NCBI RefSeq assembly: GCF_003334405.1
Contig: NZ_QOWM01000006.1
Origin: Escherichia coli
Lineage (GTDB): Bacteria > Pseudomonadota > Gammaproteobacteria > Enterobacterales > Enterobacteriaceae
Reading direction: 5' to 3' (one strand)
Length of the DNA stretch: 64,000 bases
The position numbers and the translations under genes were made by a program. The notes beneath the pieces were generated by a model. It was not told the DNA's origin. It was given only the letters and a program-made list of their open reading frames with translations, and did no database searches. This document shows positions 1 through 34,330 of this stretch, piece by piece; within the stretch, counting starts at the first letter, position 1, and the number at the start of each line of letters is the position of its first letter.

Positions 1-64
1 AGGGGAACTCCTGTGCAAAAGACAGCAATTTTATTTTCCCTATATTAAGTCAATAATTCCTAAC

Positions 65-291
65 GATGAAGCAAGGGGGTGCCCCATGCGTCAGTTTTAT
101 CAGCACTATTTTACCGCGACAGCGAAGTTGTGCTGGTTGCGTTGGTTAAGCGTCCCACAACGATTAACCATGCTTGAAGGACTGATGCAGTGGGATGACC
201 GCAATTCTGAAAGTTGACTTGCCTGCATCATGTGTGACTGAGTATTGGTGTAAAATCACCCGCCAGCAGATTATACCTGCTGGTTTTTTTT
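65..291 (+). ncRNA. sgrS: SgrS small regulatory RNA (sugar-phosphate stress), dual-function, carries the sgrT ORF
   Basis: Sequence beginning GATGAAGCAAGGGGGTGCCCC and ending in a hairpin (ccagcagattatacctgctgg, 263-283) plus T-run 284-291 matches the SgrS sequence as I recall it; conserved 3' pairing region agtattggtgtaaaatcacc present; sits immediately upstream of setA as in E. coli. Confidence 0.88.
86..217 (+). CDS. sgrT: SgrT, 43-aa small protein encoded within SgrS
   Basis: ATG at 86, translation MRQFYQHYFTATAKLCWLRWLSVPQRLTMLEGLMQWDDRNSES, stop TGA 215-217; not in the supplied ORF track because it is below the length cutoff. Confidence 0.8.
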   Translation: MRQFYQHYFTATAKLCWLRWLSVPQRLTMLEGLMQWDDRNSES

Positions 292-318
292 ATTCTCGCC
301 GCGCTAAAAAGGGAACGT

Positions 319-1497
319 ATGATCTGGATAATGACGATGGCTCGCCGTATGAACGGTGTTTACGCGGCATTTATGCTGGTCGCTTTTATGATGGGGGTGG
401 CCGGGGCGCTACAGGCTCCTACATTGAGCTTATTTCTGAGTCGTGAGGTTGGCGCGCAACCTTTCTGGATCGGCCTCTTTTATACGGTGAATGCTATTGC
501 TGGGATCGGCGTAAGCCTCTGGTTGGCAAAACGTTCTGACAGTCAGGGCGATCGGCGAAAACTGATTATATTTTGCTGTTTGATGGCTATCGGCAATGCG
601 CTATTGTTTGCATTTAATCGTCATTATCTGACGCTTATCACCTGTGGTGTGCTTCTGGCATCTCTGGCCAATACGGCAATGCCACAGTTATTTGCTCTGG
701 CGCGGGAATATGCGGATAACTCGGCGCGAGAAGTGGTGATGTTTAGCTCGGTGATGCGTGCGCAGCTTTCTCTGGCATGGGTTATCGGTCCACCGTTGGC
801 CTTTATGCTGGCGTTGAATTACGGCTTTACGGTGATGTTTTCGATTGCCGCCGGGATATTCACACTCAGTCTGGTATTGATTGCATTTATGCTTCCGTCT
901 GTGGCGCGGGTAGAACTGCCGTCGGAAAATGCTTTATCAATGCAAGGTGGCTGGCAGGATAGTAACGTACGGATGTTATTTGTCGCCTCGACGTTAATGT
1001 GGACCTGCAACACCATGTACATTATTGATATGCCGTTGTGGATCAGTAGCGAGTTAGGATTGCCAGACAAACTGGCGGGTTTCCTGATGGGGACGGCAGC
1101 TGGACTGGAAATACCAGCAATGATTCTGGCTGGCTACTATGTCAAACGTTATGGTAAGCGGCGAATGATGGTCATAGCAGTGGCGGCAGGAGTACTGTTT
1201 TACACCGGATTGATTTTCTTTAATAGCCGTATGGCGTTGATGACGCTGCAACTTTTTAACGCTGTATTTATCGGCATTGTTGCGGGTATTGGGATGCTAT
1301 GGTTTCAGGATTTAATGCCTGGAAGAGCGGGGGCAGCTACCACCTTATTTACTAACAGTATTTCTACCGGGGTAATTCTGGCTGGCGTTATTCAGGGAGC
1401 AATTGCACAAAGTTGGGGGCACTTTGCTGTCTACTGGGTAATTGCGGTTATTTCTGTTGTCGCATTATTTTTAACCGCAAAGGTTAAAGACGTTTGA
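319..1497 (+). CDS. setA: Sugar efflux transporter A (MFS family), 392 aa
   Basis: 392-aa hydrophobic multi-TM ORF directly downstream of sgrS; sequence and context consistent with SetA. Confidence 0.93.
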   Translation: MIWIMTMARRMNGVYAAFMLVAFMMGVAGALQAPTLSLFLSREVGAQPFWIGLFYTVNAIAGIGVSLWLAKRSDSQGDRRKLIIFCCLMAIGNALLFAFNRHYLTLITCGVLLASLANTAMPQLFALAREYADNSAREVVMFSSVMRAQLSLAWVIGPPLAFMLALNYGFTVMFSIAAGIFTLSLVLIAFMLPSVARVELPSENALSMQGGWQDSNVRMLFVASTLMWTCNTMYIIDMPLWISSELGLPDKLAGFLMGTAAGLEIPAMILAGYYVKRYGKRRMMVIAVAAGVLFYTGLIFFNSRMALMTLQLFNAVFIGIVAGIGMLWFQDLMPGRAGAATTLFTNSISTGVILAGVIQGAIAQSWGHFAVYWVIAVISVVALFLTAKVKDV

Positions 1498-1519
1498 TGA
1501 CGTGGACGATAGCGGAAAG

Positions 1520-1537
1520 CCCGGTCATTTGACCGGG
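1520..1537. terminator. Hairpin between convergent setA and leuD, candidate bidirectional terminator
   Basis: Inverted repeat cccggtcatttgaccggg in the 48-bp gap between the setA stop (1497) and leuD stop (1546); no strong U-run, so intrinsic-terminator status is uncertain. Confidence 0.4.
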
Positions 1538-1545
1538 CAAGGGGA

Positions 1546-6270: not shown

Positions 6271-6301
6271 AAAAAAACCCGCGCAATGGCGCGGGTTTTT
6301 T
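6271..6301 (-). terminator. leu operon attenuator (rho-independent terminator between leuL and leuA)
   Basis: On the minus-strand transcript: GC-rich hairpin cccgcgccattgcgcggg followed by a U-run; lies between the leader peptide stop (6320) and the leuA start (6227). Confidence 0.85.
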
Positions 6302-6319
6302 GTTTGACTGCGTGCTGGC

Positions 6320-6406
6320 TTAATGCTGGATGCCGCTCACTCGTCTACCGCGCAAAGAAGATGCGTTTAGTAGTAGTAGACCGATAAAGCGAACGATGTG
6401 AGTCAT
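6320..6406 (-). CDS. leuL: leu operon leader peptide, 28 aa
   Basis: [28 protein letters not shown]; four consecutive Leu codons (CUA CUA CUA CUC); embedded in the longer 63-aa track ORF 6320..6511. Confidence 0.9.
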
Positions 6407-6649
6407 TAAATCAGCTCCAGATGAATGCGATATGCTTTTAGAGTTACTGGATACAAAAACGGATGTCAACCCTGACGCAATAAAAACGTCCCGCCAGCGT
6501 GAGTTCTGCATCCGTAAAATTAGCTAATTGTGCTGCGGTGGTTAAAGTAAGCGATATTAATTTCTGCTTAACTACCGACGCTTTTCATCGGTTGACATAT
6601 TTCAGCATAAATTTTTGCATCTAATCAACGAGGAAAAAGGGGACAAAAT

Positions 6650-26683: not shown

Positions 26684-27942
26684 TCAAGGCGACGGACAGA
26701 AAACTGGTAGTAGGACTGGAGATTGGTACCGCGAAGGTTGCCGCTTTAGTAGGGGAAGTTCTGCCCGACGGTATGGTCAATATCATTGGCGTGGGCAGCT
26801 GCCCGTCGCGTGGTATGGATAAAGGCGGGGTGAACGACCTCGAATCCGTGGTCAAGTGCGTACAACGCGCCATTGACCAGGCAGAATTGATGGCAGATTG
26901 TCAGATCTCTTCGGTATATCTGGCGCTTTCTGGTAAGCACATCAGCTGCCAGAATGAAATTGGTATGGTGCCTATTTCTGAAGAAGAAGTGACGCAAGAA
27001 GATGTGGAAAACGTCGTCCATACCGCGAAATCGGTGCGTGTGCGCGATGAGCATCGTGTGCTGCATGTGATCCCGCAAGAGTATGCGATTGACTATCAGG
27101 AAGGGATCAAGAATCCGGTAGGACTTTCGGGCGTGCGGATGCAGGCAAAAGTGCACCTGATCACATGTCACAACGATATGGCGAAAAACATCGTCAAAGC
27201 GGTTGAACGTTGTGGGCTGAAAGTTGACCAACTGATATTTGCCGGACTGGCATCAAGTTATTCGGTATTGACGGAAGATGAACGTGAACTGGGTGTCTGC
27301 GTCGTCGATATCGGTGGTGGTACAATGGATATCGCCGTTTATACCGGTGGGGCATTGCGCCACACTAAGGTAATTCCTTATGCTGGCAATGTCGTGACCA
27401 GTGATATCGCTTACGCCTTTGGCACGCCGCCAAGCGACGCCGAAGCGATTAAAGTTCGCCACGGTTGTGCGCTGGGTTCCATCGTTGGAAAAGATGAGAG
27501 CGTGGAAGTGCCGAGCGTAGGTGGTCGTCCGCCACGGAGTCTGCAACGTCAGACACTGGCAGAGGTGATCGAGCCGCGCTATACCGAGCTGCTCAACCTG
27601 GTCAACGAAGAGATATTGCAGTTGCAGGAAAAGCTTCGCCAACAAGGGGTTAAACATCACCTGGCGGCAGGCATTGTATTAACCGGTGGCGCAGCGCAGA
27701 TCGAAGGTCTTGCAGCCTGTGCTCAGCGCGTGTTTCATACGCAAGTGCGTATCGGCGCGCCGCTGAACATTACCGGTTTAACGGATTATGCTCAGGAGCC
27801 GTATTATTCGACGGCGGTGGGATTGCTTCACTATGGGAAAGAGTCACATCTTAACGGTGAAGCTGAAGTAGAAAAACGTGTTACAGCATCAGTTGGCTCG
27901 TGGATCAAGCGACTCAATAGTTGGCTGCGAAAAGAGTTTTAA
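26680..27942 (+). CDS. ftsA: Cell division protein FtsA (actin-like ATPase), 420 aa
   Basis: 420-aa ORF with actin/Hsp70-fold motifs (DIGGGTMD); ATGA overlap with ftsQ. Confidence 0.97.
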
Positions 27943-28002
27943 TTTTTATGAGGCCGACGATGATTACGGCCTCAGGCGACAGGCACAAATCGGAGAGAAA
28001 CT

Positions 28003-29154
28003 ATGTTTGAACCAATGGAACTTACCAATGACGCGGTGATTAAAGTCATCGGCGTCGGCGGCGGCGGCGGTAATGCTGTTGAACACATGGTGCGCGAGCG
28101 CATTGAAGGTGTTGAATTCTTCGCGGTAAATACCGATGCACAAGCGCTGCGTAAAACAGCGGTTGGACAGACGATTCAAATCGGTAGCGGTATCACCAAA
28201 GGACTGGGCGCTGGCGCTAATCCAGAAGTTGGCCGCAATGCGGCTGATGAGGATCGCGATGCATTGCGTGCGGCGCTGGAAGGTGCAGACATGGTCTTTA
28301 TTGCTGCGGGTATGGGTGGTGGTACCGGTACAGGTGCAGCACCAGTCGTCGCTGAAGTGGCAAAAGATTTGGGTATCCTGACCGTTGCTGTCGTCACTAA
28401 GCCTTTCAACTTTGAAGGCAAGAAGCGTATGGCATTCGCGGAGCAGGGGATCACTGAACTGTCCAAGCATGTGGACTCTCTGATCACTATCCCGAACGAC
28501 AAACTGCTGAAAGTTCTGGGCCGCGGTATCTCCCTGCTGGATGCGTTTGGCGCAGCGAACGATGTACTGAAAGGCGCTGTGCAAGGTATCGCTGAACTGA
28601 TTACTCGTCCGGGTTTGATGAACGTGGACTTTGCAGACGTACGCACCGTAATGTCTGAGATGGGCTACGCAATGATGGGTTCTGGCGTGGCGAGCGGTGA
28701 AGACCGTGCGGAAGAAGCTGCTGAAATGGCTATCTCTTCTCCGCTGCTGGAAGATATCGACCTGTCTGGCGCGCGCGGCGTGCTGGTTAACATCACGGCG
28801 GGCTTCGACCTGCGTCTGGATGAGTTCGAAACGGTAGGTAACACCATCCGTGCATTTGCTTCCGACAACGCGACTGTGGTTATCGGTACTTCTCTTGACC
28901 CGGATATGAATGACGAGCTGCGCGTAACCGTTGTTGCGACAGGTATCGGCATGGACAAACGTCCTGAAATCACTCTGGTGACCAATAAGCAGGTTCAGCA
29001 GCCAGTGATGGATCGCTACCAGCAGCATGGGATGGCTCCGCTGACCCAGGAGCAGAAGCCGGTTGCTAAAGTCGTGAATGACAATGCGCCGCAAACTGCG
29101 AAAGAGCCGGATTATCTGGATATCCCAGCATTCCTGCGTAAGCAAGCTGATTAA
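28003..29154 (+). CDS. ftsZ: Cell division GTPase FtsZ, 383 aa
   Basis: 383-aa ORF with tubulin signature GGGTGTG and N-terminal [14 protein letters not shown]. Confidence 0.98.
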
Positions 29155-30976: not shown

Positions 30977-33682
30977 ATGCTAATCAAATTGTTAACTAAA
31001 GTTTTCGGTAGTCGTAACGATCGCACCCTGCGCCGGATGCGCAAAGTGGTCAACATCATCAATGCCATGGAACCGGAGATGGAAAAACTCTCCGACGAAG
31101 AACTGAAAGGGAAAACCGCAGAGTTTCGTGCACGTCTGGAAAAAGGCGAAGTGCTGGAAAATCTGATCCCGGAAGCTTTCGCCGTGGTACGTGAGGCAAG
31201 TAAGCGCGTCTTTGGTATGCGTCACTTCGACGTTCAGTTACTCGGCGGTATGGTTCTTAACGAACGCTGCATCGCCGAAATGCGTACCGGTGAAGGAAAA
31301 ACCCTGACCGCAACGCTGCCTGCTTACCTGAACGCACTAACCGGTAAAGGCGTGCACGTAGTTACCGTCAACGACTACCTGGCGCAACGTGACGCCGAAA
31401 ACAACCGTCCGCTGTTTGAATTCCTTGGCCTGACTGTCGGTATCAACCTGCCGGGCATGCCAGCACCGGCAAAGCGCGAAGCTTACGCAGCTGACATCAC
31501 TTACGGTACGAACAACGAATACGGCTTTGACTACCTGCGCGACAACATGGCGTTCAGCCCTGAAGAACGTGTACAGCGTAAACTGCACTATGCGCTGGTG
31601 GACGAAGTGGACTCCATCCTGATCGATGAAGCGCGTACACCGCTGATCATTTCCGGCCCGGCAGAAGACAGCTCGGAAATGTATAAACGCGTGAATAAAA
31701 TTATTCCGCACCTGATCCGTCAGGAAAAAGAAGACTCCGAAACCTTCCAGGGCGAAGGCCACTTCTCGGTGGACGAAAAATCTCGCCAGGTGAACCTGAC
31801 CGAACGTGGTCTGGTGCTGATTGAAGAACTGCTGGTGAAAGAGGGCATCATGGATGAAGGGGAGTCTCTGTACTCTCCGGCCAACATCATGCTGATGCAC
31901 CACGTAACGGCGGCGCTGCGCGCTCATGCGCTGTTTACCCGTGACGTCGACTACATCGTTAAAGATGGTGAAGTTATCATCGTTGACGAACACACCGGTC
32001 GTACCATGCAGGGCCGTCGCTGGTCCGATGGTCTGCACCAGGCTGTGGAAGCGAAAGAAGGTGTGCAGATCCAGAACGAAAACCAAACGCTGGCTTCGAT
32101 CACCTTCCAGAACTACTTCCGTCTGTATGAAAAACTGGCGGGGATGACCGGTACTGCTGATACCGAAGCTTTCGAATTTAGCTCAATCTACAAGCTGGAT
32201 ACCGTCGTTGTTCCGACCAACCGTCCAATGATTCGTAAAGATCTGCCGGACCTGGTCTACATGACTGAAGCGGAAAAAATTCAGGCGATCATTGAAGATA
32301 TCAAAGAACGTACTGCGAAAGGCCAGCCGGTGCTGGTGGGTACTATCTCCATCGAAAAATCGGAGCTGGTGTCAAACGAACTGACCAAAGCCGGTATTAA
32401 GCACAACGTCCTGAACGCCAAATTCCACGCCAACGAAGCGGCGATTGTTGCTCAGGCAGGTTATCCGGCTGCGGTGACTATCGCGACCAATATGGCGGGT
32501 CGTGGTACAGATATTGTGCTCGGTGGTAGCTGGCAGGCAGAAGTTGCCGCGCTGGAAAATCCGACCGCAGAGCAAATTGAAAAAATTAAAGCCGACTGGC
32601 AGGTACGTCACGATGCGGTACTGGAAGCAGGTGGCCTGCATATCATCGGTACCGAGCGTCACGAATCCCGTCGTATCGATAACCAGTTGCGCGGTCGTTC
32701 TGGTCGTCAGGGGGATGCTGGTTCTTCCCGTTTCTACCTGTCGATGGAAGATGCGCTGATGCGTATTTTTGCTTCCGACCGAGTATCCGGCATGATGCGT
32801 AAACTGGGTATGAAGCCAGGCGAAGCCATTGAACACCCGTGGGTGACTAAAGCGATTGCCAACGCCCAGCGTAAAGTTGAAAGCCGTAACTTCGACATTC
32901 GTAAGCAACTGCTGGAATATGATGACGTGGCTAACGATCAGCGTCGCGCCATTTACTCCCAGCGTAACGAACTGTTGGATGTCAGCGATGTGAGCGAAAC
33001 CATTAACAGCATTCGTGAAGATGTGTTCAAAGCGACCATTGATGCCTACATTCCACCACAGTCGCTGGAAGAAATGTGGGATATTCCGGGGCTGCAGGAA
33101 CGTCTGAAGAACGATTTCGACCTCGATTTGCCAATTGCCGAGTGGCTGGATAAAGAACCAGAACTGCATGAAGAGACGCTGCGTGAGCGCATTCTGGCGC
33201 AGTCCATCGAAGTGTATCAGCGTAAAGAAGAAGTGGTTGGTGCTGAGATGATGCGTCACTTCGAGAAAGGCGTCATGCTGCAAACGCTTGACTCCCTGTG
33301 GAAAGAGCACCTGGCAGCGATGGACTATCTGCGTCAGGGTATCCACCTGCGTGGCTACGCACAGAAAGATCCGAAGCAGGAATACAAACGTGAATCGTTC
33401 TCCATGTTTGCAGCGATGCTGGAGTCGTTGAAATATGAAGTTATCAGTACGCTGAGCAAAGTTCAGGTACGTATGCCTGAAGAGGTTGAGGAGCTGGAAC
33501 AACAGCGTCGTATGGAAGCCGAGCGTTTAGCGCAAATGCAGCAGCTTAGCCATCAGGATGACGACTCTGCAGCCGCAGCTGCACTGGCGGCGCAAACCGG
33601 AGAGCGCAAAGTAGGACGTAACGATCCTTGCCCGTGCGGTTCTGGTAAAAAATACAAGCAGTGCCATGGCCGCCTGCAATAA
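30977..33682 (+). CDS. secA: Preprotein translocase ATPase SecA, 901 aa
   Basis: 901-aa ORF with Walker A (MRTGEGKTL), DEAD-like motifs and a C-terminal zinc-binding tail ([14 protein letters not shown]). Confidence 0.98.
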
Positions 33683-33699
33683 AAGCTAACTGTTGAAGT

Positions 33700-33727
33700 A
33701 AAAGGCGCAGGATTCTGCGCCTTTTTT
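33700..33727 (+). terminator. Rho-independent terminator after secA
   Basis: aaaaggcgcaggattctgcgcctttttt: GC hairpin plus T-run. Confidence 0.8.
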
Positions 33728-33741
33728 ATAGGTTTAAGACA

Positions 33742-34131
33742 ATGAAAAAGCTGCAAATTGCGGTAGGTATTATTCGCAACGAGAACAATGAAATCTTTAT
33801 AACGCGTCGCGCAGCAGATGCGCACATGGCGAATAAACTGGAGTTTCCCGGCGGTAAAATTGAAATGGGTGAAACGCCGGAACAGGCGGTGGTGCGTGAA
33901 CTTCAGGAAGAAGTCGGGATTACCCCCCAACATTTTTCGCTATTTGAAAAACTGGAATATGAATTCCCGGACAGGCATATAACACTGTGGTTTTGGCTGG
34001 TCGAACGCTGGGAAGGGGAGCCGTGGGGTAAAGAAGGGCAACCCGGTGAGTGGATGTCGCTGGTCGGTCTTAATGCCGATGATTTTCCGCCAGCCAATGA
34101 ACCGGTAATTGCGAAGCTTAAACGTCTGTAG
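33742..34131 (+). CDS. mutT: 8-oxo-dGTP diphosphatase MutT (Nudix), 129 aa
   Basis: 129-aa ORF with Nudix box GGKIEMGETPEQAVVRELQEEVGI. Confidence 0.96.
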   Translation: MKKLQIAVGIIRNENNEIFITRRAADAHMANKLEFPGGKIEMGETPEQAVVRELQEEVGITPQHFSLFEKLEYEFPDRHITLWFWLVERWEGEPWGKEGQPGEWMSLVGLNADDFPPANEPVIAKLKRL

Positions 34132-34212
34132 GTCAGATAAGGCGTTTTCGCCGCATCCGACATTCGCACACGATGCCTGATGCGACGCTGGCGCGTCTTA
34201 TCAGGCCTAAAG
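34129..34212. repeat. REP/BIME element, copy 1
   Basis: gtaggtcagataaggcgttttcgccgcatccgacattcgcacacgatgcctgatgcgacgctggcgcgtcttatcaggcc: canonical REP palindromic units (GCCGCATCCG / CTTATCAGGCC). Confidence 0.85.

Positions 34213-34243: not shown

Positions 34244-34330
<87 letters not shown>

Follow-up and report, generated by a model that had tools for sequence, protein, structure and literature searches.

Dual-function small RNAs combine a base-pairing regulator and the mRNA of a small protein in one transcript, as in RNAIII/hld of S. aureus or SR1/SR1P of B. subtilis. The closest described system for the locus considered here is SgrS of E. coli K-12, whose mechanism has been worked out in published studies (PMC4021124, PMC2760817, PMC2760806). 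According to these studies, the buildup of sugar phosphates (glucose-phosphate stress) would lead the SgrR protein to activate the sgrS promoter, which in our DNA would lie within positions 1-64 of the window, that is, of the whole stretch of 64,000 nucleotides that was analyzed. The single-stranded 3' core of the RNA (nucleotides 167-188) would then pair, together with Hfq, with the ribosome-binding site of ptsG and with manXYZ, and this pairing would block translation and bring about decay by RNase E. Pairing of SgrS with the pldB-yigL mRNA would instead stabilize the message and thereby allow more synthesis of the phosphatase. The 5' part of the RNA would be translated into SgrT, a protein of 43 amino acids that would inhibit the existing PtsG transporter (EIICB-Glc). 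The terminator hairpin, its poly-U tail and a small hairpin just upstream would make up an Hfq-binding module, and setA, directly downstream, would form part of the same SgrR-controlled stress response.

A preliminary description of this DNA had placed a complete SgrS-like RNA of about 227 nt at positions 65-291, with a 43-codon sgrT reading frame embedded in it, an intrinsic terminator at its end and setA following it. All of these features are present. With a probability that we put at about 97%, positions 65-291 are the E. coli sgrS gene in its K-12 allele, encoding a dual-function, Hfq-dependent small RNA. The features on which this reading draws are as follows.

1-64, plus strand: sgrR-sgrS intergenic control region, with the sgrS promoter and the presumed SgrR operator; 64 of its 67 nt lie within the window
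65-291, plus strand: SgrS small RNA, 227 nt, complete; Rfam RF00534; identical to K-12
75-85, plus strand: inverted repeat GGGGGTGCCCC, rich in GC, which shares bases with the sgrT Shine-Dalgarno sequence; identical to the repeat given in PMC2760806
86-217, plus strand: sgrT coding sequence, 43 codons and a stop codon, SgrS nt 22-153; "glucose uptake inhibitor SgrT" in RefSeq
231-252, plus strand: seed region for base pairing (SgrS nt 167-188), whose sequence complements the ribosome-binding site of ptsG
247-260, plus strand: small hairpin GGUG-UAAAAU-CACC, from a fold of nt 157-227, with a U-rich UAUU on its 5' side
262-291, plus strand: Rho-independent terminator with stem GCCAGCAG/CUGCUGG(U) and a poly-U tail; the Rfam consensus structure agrees
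319-1497, plus strand: setA, sugar efflux transporter (MFS), 392 aa; TIGR00899; annotated in RefSeq

When the whole window was compared with Rfam 15, the SgrS family RF00534 matched at exactly 65-291 on the plus strand, covering positions 1-232 of a 232-position model, which is a full-length, untruncated match. The score of 228.8 bits (E=2.7e-64) lies far above the gathering score, which is 37. This is the covariance-model search that had been proposed as a check in the preliminary description, and the alignment to E. coli sgrS that was proposed alongside it found the 227 nt to be 100% identical, base for base, to the K-12 allele. The gene begins with GATGAAGCAAGGGGGTGCCCCATG and ends with CTGCTGGTTTTTTTT, and complete E. 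coli genomes carry one copy of sgrS each. The minimum free energy of the RNA is -79.2 kcal/mol (z=-3.4 relative to shuffled sequences). The stem of the terminator, at 262-284, has eight pairs and a loop of 7 nt, and the T run then extends to position 291. Judged by sequence and predicted fold, the small hairpin at 247-260 and the terminator at 262-291 correspond to the published Hfq-binding module, of which the hairpin would be the upstream half; the module is described in literature cited by PMC4021124. The findings that the preliminary description had named as grounds for giving up the identification (no Rfam match, a broken sgrT frame or a broken terminator) were all looked for and none of them holds, nor was any sequence evidence seen that contradicts the identity of SgrS. 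The Rfam match, sgrT, the terminator and setA, at the positions listed above, are far beyond chance. The published mechanism applies to this RNA because its sequence is identical to that of the experimentally characterized allele; for K-12, whose sequence is the same, induction by SgrR under glucose-phosphate stress and Hfq binding have both been described (PMC4021124). For the window, we infer induction, Hfq dependence and the translation and activity of SgrT from this literature; the sequence features, the complementarity to ptsG and the conservation were computed here.

Pairing with ptsG was analyzed by testing every 24-nt segment of SgrS for duplex formation with the K-12 ptsG leader (-103 to +30). 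The best duplex joins SgrS nt 167-188 to ptsG positions -29 to -8 with an energy of -27.8 kcal/mol (z=-3.1), and it lies over the ptsG ribosome-binding site, at the published site of pairing. Shuffled ptsG leaders gave a mean of -21.3 (sd 2.1) and 1 of 120 reached -27.8, so that the energy alone is moderately significant. An unrestricted RNAduplex run with full-length SgrS and the ptsG leader was discarded; it produced a meaningless all-through pairing, and 378 of 500 shuffles did as well. The 19-nt core of the seed region, GTGTGACTGAGTATTGGTG, occurs exactly once per genome in 110 species-representative Enterobacteriaceae genomes, and nearly all of these exact-core loci have sgrR upstream and setA downstream. 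The same core is invariant between the E. coli alleles described below. The search for exact cores in species-representative genomes did not return E. fergusonii.

The record for MG1655 gives the gene order thiB, TPP riboswitch, sgrR (minus strand), sgrT (plus), setA (plus), leuD (minus) and leuC (minus), which supports the reading of the locus as sgrR / sgrS(sgrT) - setA - leuD. In that record, the divergent sgrR gene starts on the other strand, 4 nt ahead of window position 1, and 3 nt separate its start codon from that position. The activator gene had been described as lying outside the window, and the sgrR gene is indeed absent from it; the statement needs the qualification that the window does contain 64 of the 67 intergenic nucleotides, the conserved promoter block among them. 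In 107 Enterobacteriaceae loci a block at 23-58 shows strong conservation, and within it CCCTATATTAAG (38-49) does not vary at all. The presence of such a conserved block upstream of position 65 fits an activator-dependent promoter with its operator. The best-placed candidate for a -10 element is ATAATT at 53-58, which would lie 7 nt before the start at 65, as judged from its spacing to the published start. A generic promoter scan also returned a sigma-70 pair, AAGACA/TATATT, at 19-46. This pair was rejected because 18 nt separate it from the transcription start and such sites are no more numerous than expected by chance, and an antisense promoter-like site at 254-227 was dismissed as being at chance level as well.

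Downstream, a gap of 27 nt separates the SgrS terminator from setA. The product of 319-1497 scores 602.6 bits with TIGR00899 (cutoff 522.3) and 446.7 with the SetB equivalog model, below its cutoff of 693, and the gene is therefore SetA and not SetB. Activation of setA by SgrR is reported in PMC4021124.

Over its first 1,600 positions the window agrees at every base (100% identity) with E. coli K-12 MG1655, and likewise with many other E. coli. Compared with the MG1655 record NZ_CP032667.1, the full 64 kb shows 8 substitutions and 1 single-base indel, at the following positions.

1939, 16273, 38886, 40288, 42785, 48890, 48949, 50383 and ~56978: positions that differ from NZ_CP032667.1

The 1-nt indel sits in the yacL-acnB spacer, and the best matches over 25 kb (ML35, FORC_081 and others) span 25,001 bases for a 25,000-base query. 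The spacer indel may reflect either a K-12-like source strain or a single-base sequence error at that point. On sequence grounds the source is a strain closely related to K-12 and not demonstrably MG1655 itself, with a sgrS-setA region identical to that of K-12.

Several other features were encountered elsewhere in the window, and those found with Rfam include ordinary features of K-12.

6271-6420, minus strand: leu operon leader (leuL)
33658-33727, plus strand: STnc40, in the 3' end of secA and the secA-mutT spacer
34131-34207 and 34247-34324, plus strand: naRNA4/REP, in two copies that lie between yacG and mutT
45599-45712, minus strand: tp2 antisense RNA in the pdhR-aceE spacer

Rfam also reports PssrA ("Plasmid-encoded Shigella sRNA A") at 27922-28011 on the plus strand, with 105.5 bits. 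When these coordinates were mapped to the MG1655 annotation, the match began 21 nt before the end of ftsA, ran across the ftsA-ftsZ spacer and ended 9 nt into ftsZ, and the family name is misleading here because the site is chromosomal ftsA-ftsZ. Coordinate mapping likewise placed internal direct repeats of ~80% identity in aceF (48408-49291) and in yacH (52215-52558); the repeat in aceF probably represents the repeated lipoyl domains of its product.

The sgrS locus is thus real and was correctly located and interpreted, and it is a textbook locus, experimentally characterized and already known. Having been identified to the exact base from its sequence alone, it serves as a positive control for the genome scan. 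The window itself yields nothing biologically new, and the small added value of the analysis lies in population data. These data were drawn from 5,400 complete, sgrS-bearing E. coli genomes, in which an allele at least 95% identical to that of K-12 was counted as K-12-type. The K-12-type sgrS is found in 3,241 of the 5,400 genomes and setA in 3,239, and the other 2,159 (~40%) carry an alternative ("alt") sgrS allele that is ~88% identical to K-12. In all four of the ~88%-allele genomes that were opened, setA is absent and the SgrS terminator adjoins leuD. The identity of the alt allele to K-12 is 97-98.5% over window positions 1-195 and falls to 70% over positions 196-291, the last 96 nt of the gene. 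On the other side, the two haplotypes share 82-92% identity over the last 100 nt of leuD, and 98-100% again about 400 nt further in. The divergence of the haplotypes (window 196-1545) falls off in both directions from the indel.

The haplotype without setA is also found in E. albertii, E. whittamii and Escherichia sp. E1V33. In all of the ~100 non-Escherichia loci that reach far enough downstream, setA follows sgrS, arguing that the adjacency of sgrS and setA is the ancestral gene order. The 3' module of the alt allele is 83-92% identical to that of Citrobacter, compared with 74-81% for the K-12 module. Two histories can be proposed, namely a deletion of setA followed by fast evolution, or an import of the haplotype now seen in K-12. 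As to a donor of the K-12 haplotype, the 3' modules pointed in different directions when compared, and no sampled genus has a SetA that is notably closer to that of K-12 than its LeuD or SgrR is. A search of the literature, confined to open-access text, found no paper combining setA, sgrS and phylogroup, a result that does not by itself establish novelty. The difference between the alleles as such is not new: Horler and Vanderpool (2009) had already published the 88% identity between the SgrS sequences of K-12 and CFT073/O157 as well as a mutated start codon of sgrT in O157.

A second difference within the population concerns the 5' end of the RNA. For sgrT, the Shine-Dalgarno sequence is AAGGGGG, at 73-79, and the G at SgrS nt 13 (window position 77) in K-12 completes a GGGG/CCCC hairpin over it. 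The sequence of K-12 is matched exactly over window positions 57-97 in 1,426 of the 5,400 genomes (26%). All eight of the non-identical E. coli genomes that were inspected carry the change G13A at the hairpin, which converts AAGGGGG to AAGGAGG and weakens the predicted hairpin from -6.0 to -0.4 kcal/mol, and an A is present at position 77 in every other Escherichia species examined. Low SgrT output in K-12 may accordingly be a minority trait, and most E. coli may make much more SgrT. Taken together, the minority, derived G13 hairpin and the ~60/40 split in setA suggest that the K-12 sgrS locus may be unrepresentative of E. coli, a proposal to which we would give slightly less than even odds. 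Conclusions based on K-12, both on low SgrT production and on the role of SetA in stress, may not extend to the ~40% of E. coli without setA, which include the ST131-like and O157-type strains examined, or to the ~74% of genomes without the exact hairpin sequence of K-12.

The sgrT reading frame deserves separate consideration, for two of the alternatives to the dual-function reading turn on it. The frame at 86-217 is intact and its translation is MRQFYQHYFTATAKLCWLRWLSVPQRLTMLEGLMQWDDRNSES. It falls below the default 60-aa cut-off of the ORF tool, as the preliminary description had said; the further expectation that length-based gene calling would miss it was not borne out by PGAP, which calls sgrT regardless. 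(In five of the five RefSeq records examined, L001-L005, PGAP annotates the sgrT coding sequence and the nearby TPP riboswitch and has no ncRNA feature for sgrS.) A short frame of this kind could in principle be a chance reading frame in a purely non-coding RNA, particularly as it overlaps with further small ORFs, both in other frames and on the opposite strand, and as a scan of SgrT with NCBIfam matched 0 families. The latter result reflects the coverage of that library and is not evidence against SgrT, which matches Pfam PF15894 over residues 3-37 (E=3.5e-13, 49.5 bits). Of 108 species loci, 94 retain a homologous SgrT-like frame, which begins 19-35 nt from the predicted transcription start. 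A test of substitutions by codon position on 90 ungapped, distant sgrT sequences was saturated and was repeated on 26 close relatives, in which the changes relative to K-12 at codon positions 1, 2 and 3 number 100, 170 and 257; this enrichment at the third position is consistent with coding constraint. With the function of SgrT also published, a chance frame is very improbable. The remaining 14 of the 108 species loci have only 30-132 nt between the promoter block and the seed core and no SgrT-like ORF (L017, L032, L034, L035, L060, L066, L067, L088, L089, L091, L095, L102, L106 and L112). These short, sgrT-less SgrS genes, found among others in Atlantibacter, Pseudescherichia, Yokenella and Phytobacter massiliensis, are like those published for Yersinia. 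In the E. coli strain HS-02 (L004, 2522-2652), sgrT is annotated as frameshifted, from a 1-nt deletion.

A more serious alternative accepts sgrT as a gene and holds that the allele in the window is essentially a riboregulator only, with an intact sgrT that is near-silent under the K-12-specific Shine-Dalgarno hairpin and a dual function that is merely nominal. The genetic work of Wadler and Vanderpool (PMC2760806) showed that this very K-12 inverted repeat inhibits sgrT translation, that the native K-12 allele has a very low SgrT output, and that more SgrT is made once the repeat is mutated. The window carries the repeat at 75-85, and the computed stability of the GGGGGTGCCCC hairpin noted above, so much greater than in the common A13 allele, points the same way. 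The coding arm of the RNA may thus contribute little in the strain from which the window comes. However, low output is not the same as none, the reading frame is perfectly preserved, SgrT made ectopically is reported to be active, most of the species loci retain the frame, and the pattern of substitutions shows coding constraint. We consider this alternative unlikely. A third possibility, that this copy of sgrS has decayed or lost its function, perhaps as a relic beside an imported setA, might be suggested by the two sharply different E. coli haplotypes, with and without setA; because they differ so sharply, at least one recombination or deletion event must have taken place at this spot. Nevertheless, the gene is 100% identical to the experimentally characterized gene of K-12, every functional module is intact, and there is one sgrS copy per genome; a relic, refuted by this identity, is the least probable of the readings considered. 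The preferred reading therefore remains that of a functional sgrS gene in its K-12 allele, encoding a dual-function RNA.

In comparison with known systems, the locus is the same as the SgrS/SgrT system of K-12 (RF00534; PF15894) in all 227 nt and in its neighbors, with sgrR divergent and with setA and then leuD downstream. The alt SgrS of CFT073 and O157:H7 resembles the K-12-type RNA in its 5' 131 nt (97-98.5% identical) and shares with it the seed core and the terminator stem; its sgrT also has 43 codons. It differs in that its SgrT ends in ...EELMQWEGSHSDY and that of K-12 in ...EGLMQWDDRNSES, in having a U-tail of 6 rather than 8 U residues, and in the sequence of the small hairpin and the terminator loop. 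The alt locus furthermore has no setA downstream, and with A13 in place of G13 its RNA has no hairpin over the Shine-Dalgarno sequence. In the O157-type strain ERL06-2503 (L002, 2522-2524), the sgrT start codon is ATT, and PGAP still names the ORF as the SgrT coding sequence. Salmonella SgrS has sgrT, the seed core and the terminator in the same order, between sgrR and setA. Unlike the K-12 RNA, it has no 5' hairpin covering the ribosome-binding site of sgrT, with more SgrT being made according to published work, and its spacer between core and terminator is longer. The likeness to RNAIII/hld and SR1/SR1P extends to the general plan of one transcript with two functions; these RNAs are unrelated to SgrS in sequence, targets and regulators, and no homology is implied.
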